From Escherichia coli (GTDB lineage: Bacteria > Pseudomonadota > Gammaproteobacteria > Enterobacterales > Enterobacteriaceae): a stretch of DNA of 64,000 bases. Of the stretch, positions 2,345 to 11,947 are shown in pieces. Under the pieces are notes generated by a model, which ran no database searches, was not told where the DNA came from, and saw only the letters and a list, made by a program, of their open reading frames with translations. A program made the translations under genes and the position numbers. The stretch's first letter is position 1; each line of letters starts with the position of its first letter. The stretch lies in the NCBI RefSeq assembly GCF_013122565.1, contig NZ_CP053258.1; one strand, given 5' to 3'.

Positions 2345-4936
2345 ATGCATCAATCTGGTTCTGTTTCTCTTTGTCGTTCCGCAATATCTGTTCTGGTGGC
2401 TACAGCGTTATATTCACCCATAGCATTGGCATCAACAGTTGAGTATGGTGAGACAGTTGATGGTGTTGTCCTGGAAAAAGATATCCAGCTGGTTTATGGG
2501 ACCGCCAATAATACGAAAATCAATCCTGGCGGAGAACAGCATATTAAAGAATTTGGTATAAGTAGTAATACTGAAATTAACGGCGGGTATCAGTACATTG
2601 AAATGAATGGCACCGCAGAATACTCCGTATTAAATGATGGTTATCAAATTGTTCAAATGGGTGGCGCGGCAAACCAGACTACCCTCAATAATGGTGTGCT
2701 ACAGGTTTATGGCGCAGCGAATGATCCCACGATTAAAGGCGGGCGCTTAATCGTTGAAAAAGATGGGATTACCGTCCTTGCCGCTATCGAAAAGGGAGGA
2801 TTACTGGAGGTTAAAGAGGGGGGGTTAGCGATTGCGGTAGATCAGAAAGCCGGCGGTGCTATTAAAACAACCACGCGGGCCATGGAGGTATTCGGAACAA
2901 ACCGTCTCGGTCAGTTCGATATCAAGAATGGTATTGCTAACAATATGCTGTTGGAAAACGGCGGAAGTTTGCGAGTTGAAGAAAATGACTTCGCTTATAA
3001 TACTACTGTAGATAGTGGCGGCTTACTGGAGGTTATGGATGGCGGGACTGCAACTGGCGTTGATAAAAAAGCAGGCGGAAAATTAATTGTCTCAACGAAT
3101 GCGCTGGAAGTGAGTGGTACAAACAGTAAAGGCCAATTTAGTATAAAAGATGGTGTGTCAAAAAATTATGAACTGGACGATGGTTCCGGGCTCATTGTTA
3201 TGGAGGACACGCAGGCCATTGATACTATCCTTGATGAGCATGCCACTATGCAATCGCTGGGAAAGGATACTGGTACGAGAGTGCAGGCAAATGCGGTATA
3301 TGATCTGGGTCGATCAGATCAGAATGGAAGTATCACGTATTCCTCTAAAGCCATCTCTGAAAATATGGTTATCAACAATGGCCGCGCTAATGTCTGGGCA
3401 GGCACAATGGTTAACGTTTCAGTCAGAGGGAATGATGGCATTCTTGAGGTCATGAAGCCGCAAATAAATTATGCACCCGCTATGTTGGTGGGTAGTGTCG
3501 TGGTTTCTGAGGGCGCTTCTTTAAGAACGCATGGTGCCGTGGATACCAGCAAAGCGGATGTTTCGCTCGAAAATAGCTCATGGACCATCATTGCCGATAT
3601 CACTACGACGAACCAAAACACCCGCCTCAATTTAGCCAACCTTGCGATGTCTGGCGCAAATGTGATTATGATGGATGAGCCAGTGACTCGTTCATCTGTG
3701 ACGGCAAGTGCGGAAAATTTCACTACGTTGACCACCAATACCCTGTCGGGAAACGGCAATTTTTATATGCGTACCGATATGGCTAATCATCAGAGCGATC
3801 AGCTCAACGTCACCGGACAGGCAACAGGTGATTTCAAAATATTCGTGACGGACACCGGTGCCAGCCCGGCAGCAGGAGATAGCCTTACACTGGTAACAAC
3901 GGGCGGCGGTGATGCTGCATTTACGTTGGGCAATGCCGGAGGCGTTGTTGATATCGGTACGTATGAATATACCTTGCTGGATAATGGCAATCATAGCTGG
4001 AGTCTGGCAGAGAATCGCGCGCAAATTACCCCTTCAACCACTGATGTGCTAAATATGGCGGCAGCACAACCGCTGGTATTTGATGCAGAACTGGACACCG
4101 TGCGTGAGCGTCTTGGTAGCGTAAAAGGCGTTAGTTACGATACGGCGATGTGGAGTTCGGCAATTAACACCCGCAACAACGTGACCACTGATGCGGGCGC
4201 TGGTTTTGAGCAAACATTGACGGGCCTGACGCTCGGTATCGATAGCCGTTTCTCCCGTGAAGAAAGCAGTACAATTCGCGGCTTGTTCTTTGGTTACTCT
4301 CATTCTGATATTGGTTTTGATCGCGGCGGCAAAGGCAATGTCGATAGCTATACCCTGGGTGCTTATGCCGGTTGGGAGCATCAGAACGGTGCCTATGTTG
4401 ATGGGGTGGTGAAAGTTGACCGTTTTGCCAACACCATCCATGGCAAGATGAGTAATGGGGCAACAGCGTTTGGCGATTACAATAGTAACGGCGCGGGTGC
4501 TCATGTTGAGAGCGGGTTCCGTTGGGTTGACGGATTGTGGAGTGTTAGACCCTATCTGGCCTTTACCGGCTTTACCACAGATGGTCAGGACTACACGTTA
4601 TCAAACGGCATGCGCGCGGACGTGGGAAATACCCGGATATTACGCGCTGAAGCGGGAACGGCGGTAAGCTATCACATGGACCTGCAAAACGGTACGACGC
4701 TGGAACCCTGGCTGAAAGCCGCCGTGCGTCAGGAATACGCCGATTCTAACCAGGTGAAAGTTAATGACGATGGCAAATTTAATAATGATGTGGCTGGAAC
4801 CAGTGGCGTTTATCAGGCTGGGATAAGGTCATCGTTTACCCCGACGTTAAGCGGTCATTTGTCAGTCAGCTATGGCAATGGCGCAGGGGTAGAATCACCG
4901 TGGAATACTCAGGCGGGTGTGGTCTGGTCGTTCTGA
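2345..4936 (+). CDS. yejO: Adhesin-like autotransporter (type Va secretion), apparently intact, 863 aa
   Basis: N-terminal signal peptide, repetitive Gly/Thr/Asn-rich passenger region, C-terminal beta-barrel translocator ending in …AGVVWSF; located next to tRNA-Pro and narP. Confidence 0.8.
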   Translation: MHQSGSVSLCRSAISVLVATALYSPIALASTVEYGETVDGVVLEKDIQLVYGTANNTKINPGGEQHIKEFGISSNTEINGGYQYIEMNGTAEYSVLNDGYQIVQMGGAANQTTLNNGVLQVYGAANDPTIKGGRLIVEKDGITVLAAIEKGGLLEVKEGGLAIAVDQKAGGAIKTTTRAMEVFGTNRLGQFDIKNGIANNMLLENGGSLRVEENDFAYNTTVDSGGLLEVMDGGTATGVDKKAGGKLIVSTNALEVSGTNSKGQFSIKDGVSKNYELDDGSGLIVMEDTQAIDTILDEHATMQSLGKDTGTRVQANAVYDLGRSDQNGSITYSSKAISENMVINNGRANVWAGTMVNVSVRGNDGILEVMKPQINYAPAMLVGSVVVSEGASLRTHGAVDTSKADVSLENSSWTIIADITTTNQNTRLNLANLAMSGANVIMMDEPVTRSSVTASAENFTTLTTNTLSGNGNFYMRTDMANHQSDQLNVTGQATGDFKIFVTDTGASPAAGDSLTLVTTGGGDAAFTLGNAGGVVDIGTYEYTLLDNGNHSWSLAENRAQITPSTTDVLNMAAAQPLVFDAELDTVRERLGSVKGVSYDTAMWSSAINTRNNVTTDAGAGFEQTLTGLTLGIDSRFSREESSTIRGLFFGYSHSDIGFDRGGKGNVDSYTLGAYAGWEHQNGAYVDGVVKVDRFANTIHGKMSNGATAFGDYNSNGAGAHVESGFRWVDGLWSVRPYLAFTGFTTDGQDYTLSNGMRADVGNTRILRAEAGTAVSYHMDLQNGTTLEPWLKAAVRQEYADSNQVKVNDDGKFNNDVAGTSGVYQAGIRSSFTPTLSGHLSVSYGNGAGVESPWNTQAGVVWSF

Positions 4937-6968: not shown

Positions 6969-7196
6969 TTAGTGCGCTTTGTCTTCGTTGATAGAGGACT
7001 GTAAGGCGCGGGCAAAAGAGTTGGCAATTGCCTGGCGTTGGGCCGGGGCAATGCTAGTGTTGATAAGGTTAGTGACCATGTTGCCTAACACCATCAGGGA
7101 AAGGTCGGTCGGAGCCTTATGTTTTTCCAGTACGTTGAGCAGCTCTGCGAGCAATTGTTCAACTTGTTCATCACTGTAGCGGGAAATTTGTGGCAT
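6969..7196 (-). CDS. yejL: UPF0352 small protein YejL
   Basis: 75-aa ORF ([26 protein letters not shown]…), conserved position between yejM and yejK. Confidence 0.8.
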
Positions 7197-7377
7197 AAAT
7201 CGAAATCAGTTAGTTGATGAAAGGGCAACATATTACCGTAGCAACGGTTTTTTTTCTGCTTTTTTATGCGTTAAATCATTCTCGTTACGCTGCCTTCTGT
7301 AAAATGACCGCCATCTTTTATTGCGTCGCTTAACCGGCGGTGGTTGAATACCGCCCGGTCTTAAAGGAGAGTTTATC

Positions 7378-8385
7378 ATGAGTCTGGATATCAACCAGAT
7401 TGCTCTGCACCAGCTTATCAAGCGTGATGAGCAGAACCTTGAGCTGGTGTTGCGCGATTCATTGCTGGAACCGACAGAAACCGTCGTTGAGATGGTGGCA
7501 GAACTGCATCGGGTCTATAGCGCCAAAAATAAAGCTTACGGCTTGTTTAGCGAAGAGAGTGAACTGGCGCAGACGCTGCGCTTACAGCGTCAGGGCGAAG
7601 AGGACTTTCTGGCATTTAGCCGCGCGGCAACCGGTCGCCTGCGTGACGAATTAGCGAAATATCCTTTTGCTGACGGTGGATTCGTGCTGTTTTGCCACTA
7701 CCGTTATCTGGCGGTGGAGTATCTGCTGGTGGCAGTCCTGAGCAACCTGAGCAGTATGCGCGTTAACGAAAATCTCGACATCAACCCAACCCATTATCTT
7801 GATATCAATCATGCGGATATTGTTGCGCGTATCGATTTAACCGAATGGGAAACCAATCCAGAGTCGACCCGCTATCTCACTTTCCTGAAAGGGCGAGTAG
7901 GGCGCAAAGTGGCGGATTTCTTTATGGATTTCCTCGGGGCCAGCGAAGGGTTAAACGCGAAAGCGCAAAACCGTGGGCTGTTGCAAGCGGTTGATGATTT
8001 CACTGCCGAAGCACAACTGGATAAAGCAGAGCGACAGAACGTGCGCCAGCAGGTTTATAGCTACTGTAATGAGCAGCTGCAGGCAGGCGAAGAGATTGAA
8101 CTGGAGTCGCTGTCGAAAGAGCTGGCAGGCGTCAGCGAAGTGAGCTTCACGGAGTTTGCGGCTGAAAAAGGCTACGAACTGGAAGAGAGCTTCCCGGCAG
8201 ACCGTAGCACACTGCGTCAGTTGACGAAGTTTGCCGGTAGCGGCGGTGGCTTGACTATTAACTTTGATGCGATGCTGTTAGGTGAACGCATCTTCTGGGA
8301 TCCGGCGACCGATACCCTGACCATTAAAGGCACGCCGCCGAATTTGCGCGACCAATTGCAGCGCCGGACGTCTGGTGGGAACTAA
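7378..8385 (+). CDS. yejK: Nucleoid-associated protein YejK (NdpA)
   Basis: 335-aa ORF ([19 protein letters not shown]…), conserved gene order. Confidence 0.9.
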
Positions 8386-8765
8386 ATCTCCAACGCGAAT
8401 GTTTCTTTTCGGAGAAACAGTTGCGGGATAATCACAATTCTTGTCAATCAGTTAGTGAGATGACTTGCTGATTGACCTTTCATTCGAAAATGTTTTCTCT
8501 GTTATTATACTTAGTGTTACTGAAAATATTATTCTCTTATCCCCTTTATTCGATAATAAATCGGTCTGGTCACTATTTCCGCCGTTTTTTGTGAGCTGTA
8601 ACACTGGAAAAATCATTCTGTTTAATTATATTGAGTTTACTTGGCGTTATATGTTGTTATTTGCTTTGACTATATAAAATGCAAATGTATTCTTAATGTC
8701 AATATTATTGTCGTTATGTTTGACTCATTATATTAATCGTATGAATAGTTTTAAGGATTCACCGC

Positions 8766-9338
8766 ATGGAGCAAGAAAATCCTGAAGATAGAAAGTGTTG
8801 TCGACCGAAAAAAACGTTCTCTTTAACCAGAAAATTACTGGTATGTTTTATCTTTACCCTCATTGTATTCAGTGGTTGTTTATTTGTCGTTATGAACACG
8901 GTCATTCATAACACCAGCACTGACAGCTTTTGCCTGGGTTGTCATGAAATGAAAGACAACATCCTTACCGAGAGTTTCAAAAAATCCATTCATGGCAGTA
9001 ATCGTACTGGCGTGAAAGTCGCTTGTGCCGATTGCCATATTCCTGATGAATTTGTCCCTAAGATGATCAGAAAAGCCCACGCCGTTAAAGAGGTTTGGGG
9101 GCATATGACAGGCGTAATTGATACGGCCGATAAATTCGATGCACATCGTGGCGAAATGGCAAAAGCGGAATGGGCAAGAATGAAAGCAAACAATTCGCAG
9201 GAATGCAGAGACTGCCACGATATTTCTAAATTACAGAAAAAATTTATGGCGCCGTTCCATGAGGCTTCTCTTAAAGAAGGGAAAACATGCATTGATTGTC
9301 ATGCCGGCATTGCACATAAATTACCAGCAGTTCATTAG
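8766..9338 (+). CDS. NapC/NirT/CymA-family membrane-anchored tetraheme cytochrome c (putative quinol dehydrogenase)
   Basis: 190-aa ORF with an N-terminal transmembrane helix and four CxxCH heme-binding motifs (CLGCH, CADCH, CRDCH, CIDCH); AAGGA Shine-Dalgarno sequence 8 nt upstream; AT-rich codon usage. Confidence 0.85.
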   Translation: MEQENPEDRKCCRPKKTFSLTRKLLVCFIFTLIVFSGCLFVVMNTVIHNTSTDSFCLGCHEMKDNILTESFKKSIHGSNRTGVKVACADCHIPDEFVPKMIRKAHAVKEVWGHMTGVIDTADKFDAHRGEMAKAEWARMKANNSQECRDCHDISKLQKKFMAPFHEASLKEGKTCIDCHAGIAHKLPAVH

Positions 9339-9431
9339 TCATTAATACATGAATGTCATGTCTGTCTGGTTTCAAATAAAAACAAGAAGGGTTTCATGTT
9401 GATTTAAGTTTTTATGTAAAAGGACCATGTT

Positions 9432-11072
9432 ATGAGGAAACTAAAAAGGGGATTCTTATTGGCTGGGGTATTAACGGCACTTTCTCTAAGCGCTTATGCT
9501 GACAGAAATATGAATAAGATCCCGCATATCAATCTGTCGAATCCATCCGTCGAACCAGTTAGTGAGAGAATAATCCAAACAGATATTGTTGTTATTGGCG
9601 GTGGGCTTTCTGGCATGTCCGCAGGGTTGACTGCAGTACAGGGCGGAGCCAAAGTTGTTATTTTTGAAAAACTACCAAGCCTTGGAGGGGCAGGCGTTTA
9701 TCCTGAAGGCAGTTTAGGCATTGGCACCCTTATGCAAAAAAAAGAGGGGAAAGGTGCCACGCTGAATCAAGCCTTTGGTAAGGCGATCGATTTCCATCAC
9801 TGGCGAGCCAATGCTAGTGCATTGCACGCATTAATGAAAAACTCAGGCGAAACCATTGATTGGGTTGCCAGTAATGGCGTTGAGTTTACGACCTTAAAAA
9901 CCACCATTTATCCTCAGTCAGATTCATTATGGACCTGGCATATGTATAAGCATAATGGTGCATCTGTTACTAAAAGCTTTTACAAGAAGATCCTTGATGG
10001 AGGTGGGCAAATCTACACCGAAACTCCTGTTAAGAAGATTCTTCGCGACAAACAAAGCGGTGATGTCGTTGGCGTCGAAGCGGTTAATAGCGTAACAGGG
10101 GAAAAAATCATTGCCTATGGTAAGGGTGTGATTGTGGCGACCGGTGGTTTTGCCAACAACCGTGACATGATTGAAAAATACATCACCGATGTGAATCAGA
10201 AAAACATGGTGCCGGTCAAACTACGTGGCCCCCTGATTGATGGACGCGAAGGCGATGGTATCAAAATGGGGCAAGACATTGGCGCTGATACTGCCGGGAT
10301 GCAAACCATTGCTGGCAATAGCCCATATGTCGATCAAGACCCTCCTATCCGTCAGTTTAATGGCGCGGATTACCAAAAACAGGCCAGAACGTCATTAAGC
10401 CAGCCATTCCTGTGGATTAACCGACAAGGCGAGCGTTTCTTTGATGAGTCACTCGGTTCCAGTTTTACCCTCGTTTATAACGCTATCACCATGAATGGCG
10501 GAGTCATGTATTCTGTCTGGGATGATGCAATGCGCCAGAAGATGGTTAACGAAGGGCCGGTTACACCGTTTAACGCCATCGTGTTGCCTGGGCAGCCGAT
10601 GAAGGCGCTGGATCAGGCGATCGAAATCGGCATGAAAGAAGGGTGGTTATTTAAAGGTGAAACGTTGGACGATCTGGCAAAACAGATCAATGTTCCTGCA
10701 GACAATCTGAAAGCGACGATTGCGAAAGTAAACAAGTATACGGATGAAGGTTTCGATCCTGACTGGGGGCGCAAGAAAGAGCATCTGTTTAAATTTCAGG
10801 ATAAAGGACCGTATTACGCCGTGAAAGGTATTCGGGCTTATTTCCTGACGCTGGGTGGTTTGAAAATGAACAGCGATCTGCAGGTCTACGATACCAATGA
10901 GAAGATTATCCCAGGTCTGTATGTTGTCGGGCAGGATATGGGCGGTCTGTATGACAGCTCCTATGATTTGGTACTTGAAGGATCGGCTTCTGGCTTTGCG
11001 TTGACGTCGGGACGTATGGCAGCGAAACATATTATAAGCACCAGAGTGCAGGCACAGGGAGGAGGCAAATGA
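9432..11072 (+). CDS. Periplasmic FAD-dependent flavoprotein reductase, fumarate-reductase/flavocytochrome-c family (substrate unknown)
   Basis: 546-aa ORF; signal peptide MRKLKRGFLLAGVLTALSLSAYA; dinucleotide-binding fold VVIGGGLSGMSAG; C-terminal FAD-binding motif of the FrdA/SdhA family (…GLYVVGQDMGG…); its stop overlaps the next start (ATGA). Confidence 0.85.
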   Translation: MRKLKRGFLLAGVLTALSLSAYADRNMNKIPHINLSNPSVEPVSERIIQTDIVVIGGGLSGMSAGLTAVQGGAKVVIFEKLPSLGGAGVYPEGSLGIGTLMQKKEGKGATLNQAFGKAIDFHHWRANASALHALMKNSGETIDWVASNGVEFTTLKTTIYPQSDSLWTWHMYKHNGASVTKSFYKKILDGGGQIYTETPVKKILRDKQSGDVVGVEAVNSVTGEKIIAYGKGVIVATGGFANNRDMIEKYITDVNQKNMVPVKLRGPLIDGREGDGIKMGQDIGADTAGMQTIAGNSPYVDQDPPIRQFNGADYQKQARTSLSQPFLWINRQGERFFDESLGSSFTLVYNAITMNGGVMYSVWDDAMRQKMVNEGPVTPFNAIVLPGQPMKALDQAIEIGMKEGWLFKGETLDDLAKQINVPADNLKATIAKVNKYTDEGFDPDWGRKKEHLFKFQDKGPYYAVKGIRAYFLTLGGLKMNSDLQVYDTNEKIIPGLYVVGQDMGGLYDSSYDLVLEGSASGFALTSGRMAAKHIISTRVQAQGGGK

Positions 11073-11479
11073 GTAAGCTATTGAAGAACATTGTCACAAT
11101 CATTCTTGCTGGCGTAATGTGCACCGTTATCGGTATGGTTTCTGCCAGTGCACAAGAGATTGTCGGCATGAAAATGCACAAGACCATTGGTCTGGAATGT
11201 AATAACTGCCATGTTGATGATGTTAAAGCCAACAAGAATATGACGCCAACGTGCGTTAGCTGCCATGCGCCTGGTGAGCGTTATTATCATGGTAAGAAGG
11301 ATTCAGAAGGTAACTCAGTGTTAAAAGAGTATCCGGAGTCGGGTAAAACACGAGTTGCGTCTTTCCATGACTCTCATGGCGGGGAAATTCGCTGTACGGT
11401 ATGCCATACGTCACATGAGAAGGAACCACAGCCACTCTATTGCAACAACTGCCATCAGTTTGATGTGAAGATTAAGTAG
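11069..11479 (+). CDS. Small periplasmic tetraheme cytochrome c
   Basis: 136-aa ORF with N-terminal signal/anchor and four CxxCH motifs (CNNCH, CVSCH, CTVCH, CNNCH); strong GGAGG ribosome-binding site; translationally coupled to the flavoprotein gene. Confidence 0.8.
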   Translation: MSKLLKNIVTIILAGVMCTVIGMVSASAQEIVGMKMHKTIGLECNNCHVDDVKANKNMTPTCVSCHAPGERYYHGKKDSEGNSVLKEYPESGKTRVASFHDSHGGEIRCTVCHTSHEKEPQPLYCNNCHQFDVKIK

Positions 11480-11504
11480 TGAAGGTATTTGTCAGTCGCT
11501 GAAA

Positions 11505-11537
11505 AAGAAAACGGCCCGTAAAGGCCGTTTTCTTTTG
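11505..11537. terminator. Bidirectional intrinsic terminator between the cytochrome gene (+) and rplY (-)
   Basis: Hairpin aaacggcc-cgtaaa-ggccgttt flanked by an A-rich stretch upstream and a T-rich stretch downstream. Confidence 0.65.
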
Positions 11538-11554
11538 TTCAACTTATTCAGCAA

Positions 11555-11947
<393 letters not shown>

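Follow-up and report, generated by a model that had tools for sequence, protein, structure and literature searches.

Escherichia albertii carries the closest described counterpart of the cytochrome island that lies between yejK and rplY in the present sequence. Ooka et al. (2015) reported the island as an E. albertii-specific 'yejH-yejK' insert and used it as a nested-PCR target; it was found in all their E. albertii strains and in none of their E. coli, E. fergusonii and clade C-I to C-V genomes (PMC4700944). A later review includes this target among its PCR protocols (PMC9145129). The window, i.e. the whole stretch of 64,000 nucleotides analysed here, shares the three genes and their chromosomal site with the E. 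albertii insert, but its island-gene DNA is 85% identical and its backbone is E. coli-like. E. albertii NBRC 107761 (L006) shares with the window the island, both of the hairpins described below and a conserved promoter block; the hairpins are not discussed in the paper of Ooka et al. (PMC4700944). In gene content the island resembles the split flavoprotein/tetrahaem cytochrome c periplasmic reductases, in which a FAD_binding_2 flavoprotein is combined with a small tetrahaem c3-type cytochrome and a NapC/NirT/CymA-type quinol dehydrogenase. The methacrylate reductase Mrd with Mcc of Geobacter sulfurreducens AM-1 is an example (PMC4427408). The Shewanella CymA-dependent flavocytochromes are a second one, and the likeness is that of the island, not of the hairpins. 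All NCBIfam matches of the island proteins were far below the curated cut-offs. In E. coli K-12, yejK and rplY are 138 bp apart, and the spacer consists of a REP-like element and one bidirectional terminator (AAAAAACCCCGCCGGAGCGGGGTTTTTT).

Table 1. Coordinates of the features around the yejK-rplY island, in positions of the window.
Feature	Position	Strand	Description
yejK	7378..8385	+	335-aa nucleoid-associated protein; ORF and Pfam NA37 match, E 3.5e-112
Hairpin 1	8389..8428	+	16-pair stem with bulges, UUCG loop, no U-tract; starts 3 nt after the yejK stop
Inter-hairpin linker	8429..8442	+	A/U-rich; single-stranded in MFE and centroid folds
Hairpin 2 (the 9-bp inverted repeat)	8443..8476	+	14-bp imperfect stem, 6-nt loop at 8457-8462
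T-rich tail CTTTCATTC	8477..8485	+	directly 3' of hairpin 2; terminator-like in consensus scan
TGTGAGCTGTAACACT (TGTGA-N6-nCACn)	8590..8605	+	CRP-type half-site pair; in 18/18 distinct upstream regions
TTATATT	8626..8632	+	-10-like TATATT at 8627-8632; promoter-scan match ending at 8632
NapC/NirT-type tetrahaem cytochrome	8766..9338	+	first island gene
FAD_binding_2 flavoprotein reductase	9432..11072	+	flavocytochrome-c / fumarate-reductase superfamily
c3-type tetrahaem cytochrome	11069..11479	+	third island gene; operon 8766..11479
Perfect 14-bp palindrome AAAAGAAAACGGCC-N6-GGCCGTTTTCTTTT	11503..11536		100% complementary arms, 6-nt loop
rplY (ribosomal protein L25)	11555..11839	-	convergent with yejK and the island

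Directly after the yejK stop codon (TAA at 8383-8385) the preliminary description had reported a hairpin TGTTTCT-TTTCGG-AGAAACA (8400-8419) and a perfect inverted repeat, GTCAATCAG (8443-8451) and CTGATTGAC (8468-8476) with 16 nt between the arms, followed by very AT-rich DNA ahead of the island. The sequence reads as claimed, with a GC content of 0.32 over 8401-8800 and about 290 bp up to the first gene at 8766. Both elements are larger than described there. The arms of hairpin 1 are 13 nt each and 85% complementary; those of hairpin 2 are 14 nt (8443-8456 and 8463-8476) and 86% complementary, and the supposed 16-bp spacer of the 9-bp repeat is itself mostly base-paired stem. The two elements are most likely ordinary terminator-type RNA stem-loops, not a regulator site or an insertion scar. 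We propose that they are tandem + strand stem-loops which would end the yejK transcript, hairpin 2 and its tail acting as the terminator, and we put the probability of this reading at roughly 0.6.

Position and folding are consistent with this proposal. The yejK transcript would run on into both hairpins; 57 nt separate the yejK stop from the start of hairpin 2 on the + strand, and no further + strand gene end lies nearby. Folded as + strand RNA, hairpin 1 had an energy of -16.3 kcal/mol (z -3.6) and hairpin 2 of -17.7 kcal/mol (z -4.7), and neither was reached in stability by any of 200 shuffles (0/200). The - strand fold of the 105-nt region was weaker (z -2.65). When the 380-bp spacer was dinucleotide-shuffled, about 5% of the shuffles contained a perfect inverted repeat of 9 bp (spacer 0-20 nt) and about 18% a 7-bp hairpin. 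The exact repeats are therefore by themselves only marginally unusual, whereas the folding energies are clearly unusual. Perfect 9-bp inverted repeats occur at 20 sites in the window, 14 of which lie within 100 nt downstream of the stop codon of a long ORF, as compared to 9% of random positions; the reported repeat thus belongs to an ordinary class of gene-end elements.

The idea of a yejK terminator in this place held in kind, but not with regard to the element: the long stem and the T-rich tail belong to hairpin 2, whereas the first hairpin has no U-tract. The consensus scan called 8448-8475 and the tail terminator-like, i.e. its match falls on the supposed operator palindrome. The tail of hairpin 2 in the window (CUUUCAUUC) starts with C and is short and interrupted. 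With a TransTerm-style score, in our own implementation of the published formula, it reached -2.94, which is equalled by about 10% of all window positions. Because the tail is interrupted and so many positions score as well, hairpin 2 would by sequence be a weak terminator. The corresponding tail UUUUCAU scored -4.35 in Escherichia sp. MOD1-EC7003 (L005) and -4.52 in E. albertii (L006), values reached by 0.6% of window positions, and (C/T)TTTCA after the stem was conserved in all seven variants with the element. With 5 G-C among its 13 pairs in the window, the stem is rich in A/U. Over the seven variants it has 13-15 pairs and a loop of 4-6 nt, with energies from -12.5 to -19.1 kcal/mol.

Hairpin 2 (8443-8476) with the tail at 8477-8485 would accordingly serve as a (weak) Rho-independent terminator of yejK, and it would shield the downstream island operon from yejK read-through. 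Hairpin 1 may be an accessory 3'-UTR stem-loop, for example for pausing or for protection against 3' exonucleases, and would then take the part played by the REP element after yejK in K-12. In Citrobacter-type islands hairpin 2 is absent and there is no obvious U-tract terminator after yejK, so a canonical terminator is not universally required at the junction between yejK and the island. An Rfam scan of 7000-9500 at E <= 1 gave one chance-level match (E 0.65, with 20 bits where the gathering score is 45), which falls elsewhere in the spacer, outside the hairpins. Three small ORFs overlap the hairpins, at 8452-8616 (-), 8465-8677 (+) and 8472-8594 (+). They were rejected as coding because relatives show indels that are not multiples of three and low identity there.

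The preliminary description had placed the upstream boundary of the island here, and similarity to E. coli genomes does end at the yejK stop codon. It sets in again at position 11540, which is 15 nt past the rplY stop; the entire native spacer, its terminator included, has thus been replaced by the block 8386-11539. Island-free spacers of E. coli, Citrobacter, Salmonella, Enterobacter and others contain 0-2 REP-like elements and the common terminator CCCCGCC...GGCGGGG. Both hairpins would have come in with the island block. Since the bidirectional terminator common to yejK and rplY was removed with the native spacer, yejK would have needed one of its own. In form and location the palindrome at 11503-11536 suits a bidirectional terminator; it would now serve the island operon and rplY, taking over from the native CCCCGCC...GGCGGGG element.

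To survey the locus we used 80 yejK loci from species-representative genomes, and the distance between yejK and rplY was measured in each. In most Enterobacteriaceae it was 50-155 bp. The island was found at the same site in Escherichia sp. MOD1-EC7003, E. albertii NBRC 107761 and Citrobacter sp. Cu233 (L011), and look-ups with homologues of the NapC-like protein gave more island copies, always directly after yejK. In 5,426 complete RefSeq E. coli genomes, searched even in the distant mode, there was neither the island nor any part of 8386-8490, and the plasmids searched contained neither the island nor the hairpins. Neither hairpin was present in the island-free spacers examined, and no other copy was detected in the window or in any of the fetched loci (100+). 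The palindrome is thus absent from the yejK 3' end of these island-free strains; the hairpins are linked to the island.

Several further observations were made on the island and its surroundings. Diverged copies of the island were seen in Escherichia sp. MOD1-EC7003, unclassified Escherichia, assemblies labelled E. coli or Shigella flexneri, and Citrobacter. The island that is used as an E. albertii-specific PCR target thus occurs in diverged form also in E. coli-type, other Escherichia and Citrobacter genomes, which may bear on the specificity of the E. albertii PCR assay. The island genes have diverged to very different degrees between lineages: compared with L005, L006 and L011 (tblastn, best segment), amino-acid identity was 93-98% for the flavoprotein, 66-94% for the NapC-like cytochrome and 77-96% for the c3-type cytochrome. 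The NapC-like ORF has 190 aa in the window and 193-194 aa in all close relatives, with a 12-nt internal length difference and the same start. Citrobacter-type islands (L011, L092, L097, L100, L102) have an extra ABC transporter gene after the c3-type gene (ABC_membrane and ABC_tran, 577-593 aa), which the Escherichia-type island does not have. The yejK-rplY spacer is a recurrent insertion point, and other DNA is found there without the cytochrome island: about 2.3 kb in Kluyvera, about 3.9 kb in Raoultella and some Klebsiella or Enterobacter, and about 1.5 kb in Klebsiella. Enlarged yejK-rplY gaps were present in loci L058-L060, L064, L068, L070, L071, L073, L076-L079, L082 and L083. Upstream in the window, an AIDA-type autotransporter occupies the yejO position (2345-4936) as an intact ORF of 863 aa; in K-12 W3110 the annotation gives yejO as a pseudogene and places an IS5 element beside it.

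In all, conservation of the stem-loops was followed in 18 distinct sequences of the spacer that separates yejK from the first island gene. Hairpin 2 was found in every Escherichia-type spacer and in the distant L096, the rest of whose spacer is unalignable. In the six distinct sequences of hairpin 2, 93.9% of the cells were standard pairs, as compared to only 12-48% paired in slid control alignments. Eight of its 14 pairs never vary, four change on one side yet stay paired, and there is one double change from G-C to A-U. The covariation is modest, with 21 of 500 shuffles reaching the observed score in these six sequences; further E. albertii copies were identical to L006 and added nothing to the set. 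Seven cells are G·U on the + strand, whereas just two mismatched cells would be G·U on the - strand. In E. albertii the 3' arm reads CTGATTGGC against the 5' arm GTCAATCAG, and the DNA symmetry is broken while the RNA pairing is kept as G·U. The core arms CAATCAG/CTGATTG are invariant in all seven variants with the element, including L096. The loops drift (GAGATG, GTAA, TGAA), and the gap between the 8-mer arms GTCAATCA and TGATTGAC is 18 nt in the window and in E. albertii and 14 nt in the L005 group.

For hairpin 1, 84% of the cells were paired in the Escherichia variants (five variants), with two double-sided changes, and 5 of 500 shuffles were as well paired. A strong hairpin of one kind or another directly follows the yejK stop in each of the island lineages. 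In the Citrobacter-type spacers these are other stem-loops, of -24 to -34 kcal/mol, and most of them have a TCTCC...GGAGA core in common with hairpin 1.

These data also bear on the possibility that the stem-loops are without current function, i.e. neutral remnants which an older intergenic region has left and which fold by coincidence. Hairpin 2 is kept where the surrounding spacer is merely 66-74% identical or unalignable, its stem changes keep the pairing while the loop drifts, and both folding energies lie beyond all 200 shuffles. We therefore regard neutral remnants as rather unlikely, even though the exact repeats arise in shuffles at the frequencies given above (about 5% for the 9-bp repeat and 18% for the 7-bp hairpin) and the U-tract in the window is weak. 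The comparison set is also small and closely related, so that the conservation may partly reflect common ancestry.

The second suggestion in the preliminary description was that the 9-bp repeat is a DNA operator, at which a dimeric factor such as FNR, NarP/NarL, CRP or another would control the cytochrome island. The element does sit upstream of the island operon, it is linked to the island and absent from island-free genomes, its arms are perfect in the window and the CAATCAG/CTGATTG core does not vary. However, several results make an operator improbable. The patterns for FNR (TTGAT-N4-ATCAA), NarL/NarP (7-2-7 site or heptamers) and CRP were scanned in all 18 spacers with 2-3 mismatches, and no match fell within 8443-8476 in any variant. 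The supposed spacer is itself paired and leaves a loop of 4-6 nt, and the distance from arm to arm differs by 4 nt between lineages; with this varying loop and arm spacing an RNA stem fits better than a dimeric operator. In E. albertii the symmetry of the DNA is broken (GTCAATCAG / CTGATTGGC), and the RNA pairing survives as G·U. Furthermore, 290-320 bp separate the element from the start codon, and the sole promoter-like block that is conserved in all variants lies about 150 bp downstream of it; the Citrobacter-type islands keep that block (TGTGA-N6-CAC / TTATAYT) yet have no palindrome. Like the class II CRP/FNR-family sites, the palindrome is an inverted repeat upstream of an anaerobic-respiration-type operon, but its sequence and spacing do not match their consensus. 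A Fur box was also considered in the linker (8427-8445). It had 14 of 19 matches to the 19-bp consensus and was equalled in 11.5% of simulations, which is not significant; the resemblance was 13-15 of 19 in other Escherichia variants and was absent from most non-Escherichia variants.

The likeness to class II CRP/FNR-family sites was found instead at 8590-8605, upstream of the conserved TATATT. TTATA(T/C)T is conserved in all variants about 20 nt downstream of the TGTGA-N6-nCACn site, and TTTGTGA...CAC..GAAA and TTATA(T/C)T are the sole invariant stretches in the promoter-proximal 230 bp, which are otherwise poorly conserved. The block at 8590-8632 is a much better candidate promoter and activator site for the island operon than the palindrome, which lies about 150 bp further upstream and is missing from the Citrobacter-type islands. 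Transcription is predicted to start near 8639, about 7 nt after TATATT, with a leader of about 125 nt. Such a start would put the centre of the site near -41.5, i.e. in class II CRP/FNR-family geometry, with the caveat that in the L005 group the spacing between the site and TTATA(T/C)T is 4 nt shorter. Another promoter-like match in the spacer, with a -10 element TATACT at 8506-8511, was not conserved in L005 or L006. The search for the regulation of the island is thereby redirected from the palindrome to the conserved CRP-type site and -10 element at 8590-8632.

A sequence-specific role is also conceivable, because the CAATCAG/CTGATTG arms are invariant where the surrounding sequence has diverged. 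Hairpin 1, the linker, hairpin 2 and the U-tail together could then be an sRNA derived from the 3' UTR or a sequence-specific protein-binding RNA or DNA element that couples YejK to the island. We consider this very improbable; if true, the expression of the nucleoid protein YejK would be tied to that of the adjacent respiratory island.

With regard to the arrival of the island, the flanking DNA agrees with K-12 at 98-100% of positions as far as about 8290, the last ~100 nt of yejK are 94% identical, and from 11540 on, on the rplY side, the identity is 100%. The best RefSeq E. coli matches to the window backbone were 97.9-99.2%. An unclassified Escherichia (L093) has the highest identity to the window in the island genes (97.4%) and only 93% in the flanks; for E. 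albertii the identity is 85% in the island genes and about 90% in the flanks. This identity mosaic fits an import by homologous recombination through the conserved flanks, not site-specific insertion, and would fit a recombination breakpoint inside the 3' end of yejK. Homologous recombination is preferred because the identity drops already within yejK and because the affinities of the island and its flanks differ. The island contains only cytochrome and flavoprotein genes, with no integrase or transposase in it or adjoining it, and no direct or terminal inverted repeats pair 8386-8480 with 11480-11555. That the hairpin and palindrome are an insertion scar or recombination site (att, transposon end, MITE or REP-type), as had also been suggested, can hardly be upheld: the elements lie exactly at the left boundary of DNA that is absent from K-12, in a recurrent insertion point that holds 1.5-5 kb of other DNA in Klebsiella, Kluyvera, Raoultella and Citrobacter, but no repeats link the two boundaries, no mobility genes accompany them, they are single-copy in the window, the fetched loci, the 5,426 E. 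coli genomes and the plasmids, the identity to K-12 falls in the last ~100 nt of yejK, ahead of the elements, and the nearest Escherichia lineage is not the same for the island genes as for the flanks.

The preferred reading of the hairpins as terminator-type stem-loops gives them little importance in themselves, as a routine gene-end element inside an already published E. albertii marker island. They would illustrate how a gene block, imported in place of a terminator that two convergent genes have in common, comes with terminators of its own. The hairpins themselves are previously undescribed, but as a kind of element they are very familiar. Hairpin 2 agrees with the Rho-independent terminators of Enterobacteriaceae in lying on the coding strand soon after a stop codon, in its stable stem of 13-15 pairs with a loop of 4-6 nt and a T-rich stretch directly behind it, in its strand-specific G·U pairs and in sequence drift with the pairing kept. 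It differs from them in its A/U-rich stem and in the window also in the short, interrupted tail CUUUCAUUC. In this tail it is unlike the native yejK/rplY terminator of island-free genomes, AAAAACCCCGCC...GGCGGGGTTTTT. The 3' region of yejK in K-12 has the same layout as that of the window, with a stem-loop that has no U-tract and a terminator hairpin about 50-100 nt later. However, the two regions have no sequence similarity, and hairpin 1 is single-copy and not a copy of a REP element. In K-12 one terminator is common to yejK and rplY, whereas the arrangement with the island would have separate terminators for the two genes.
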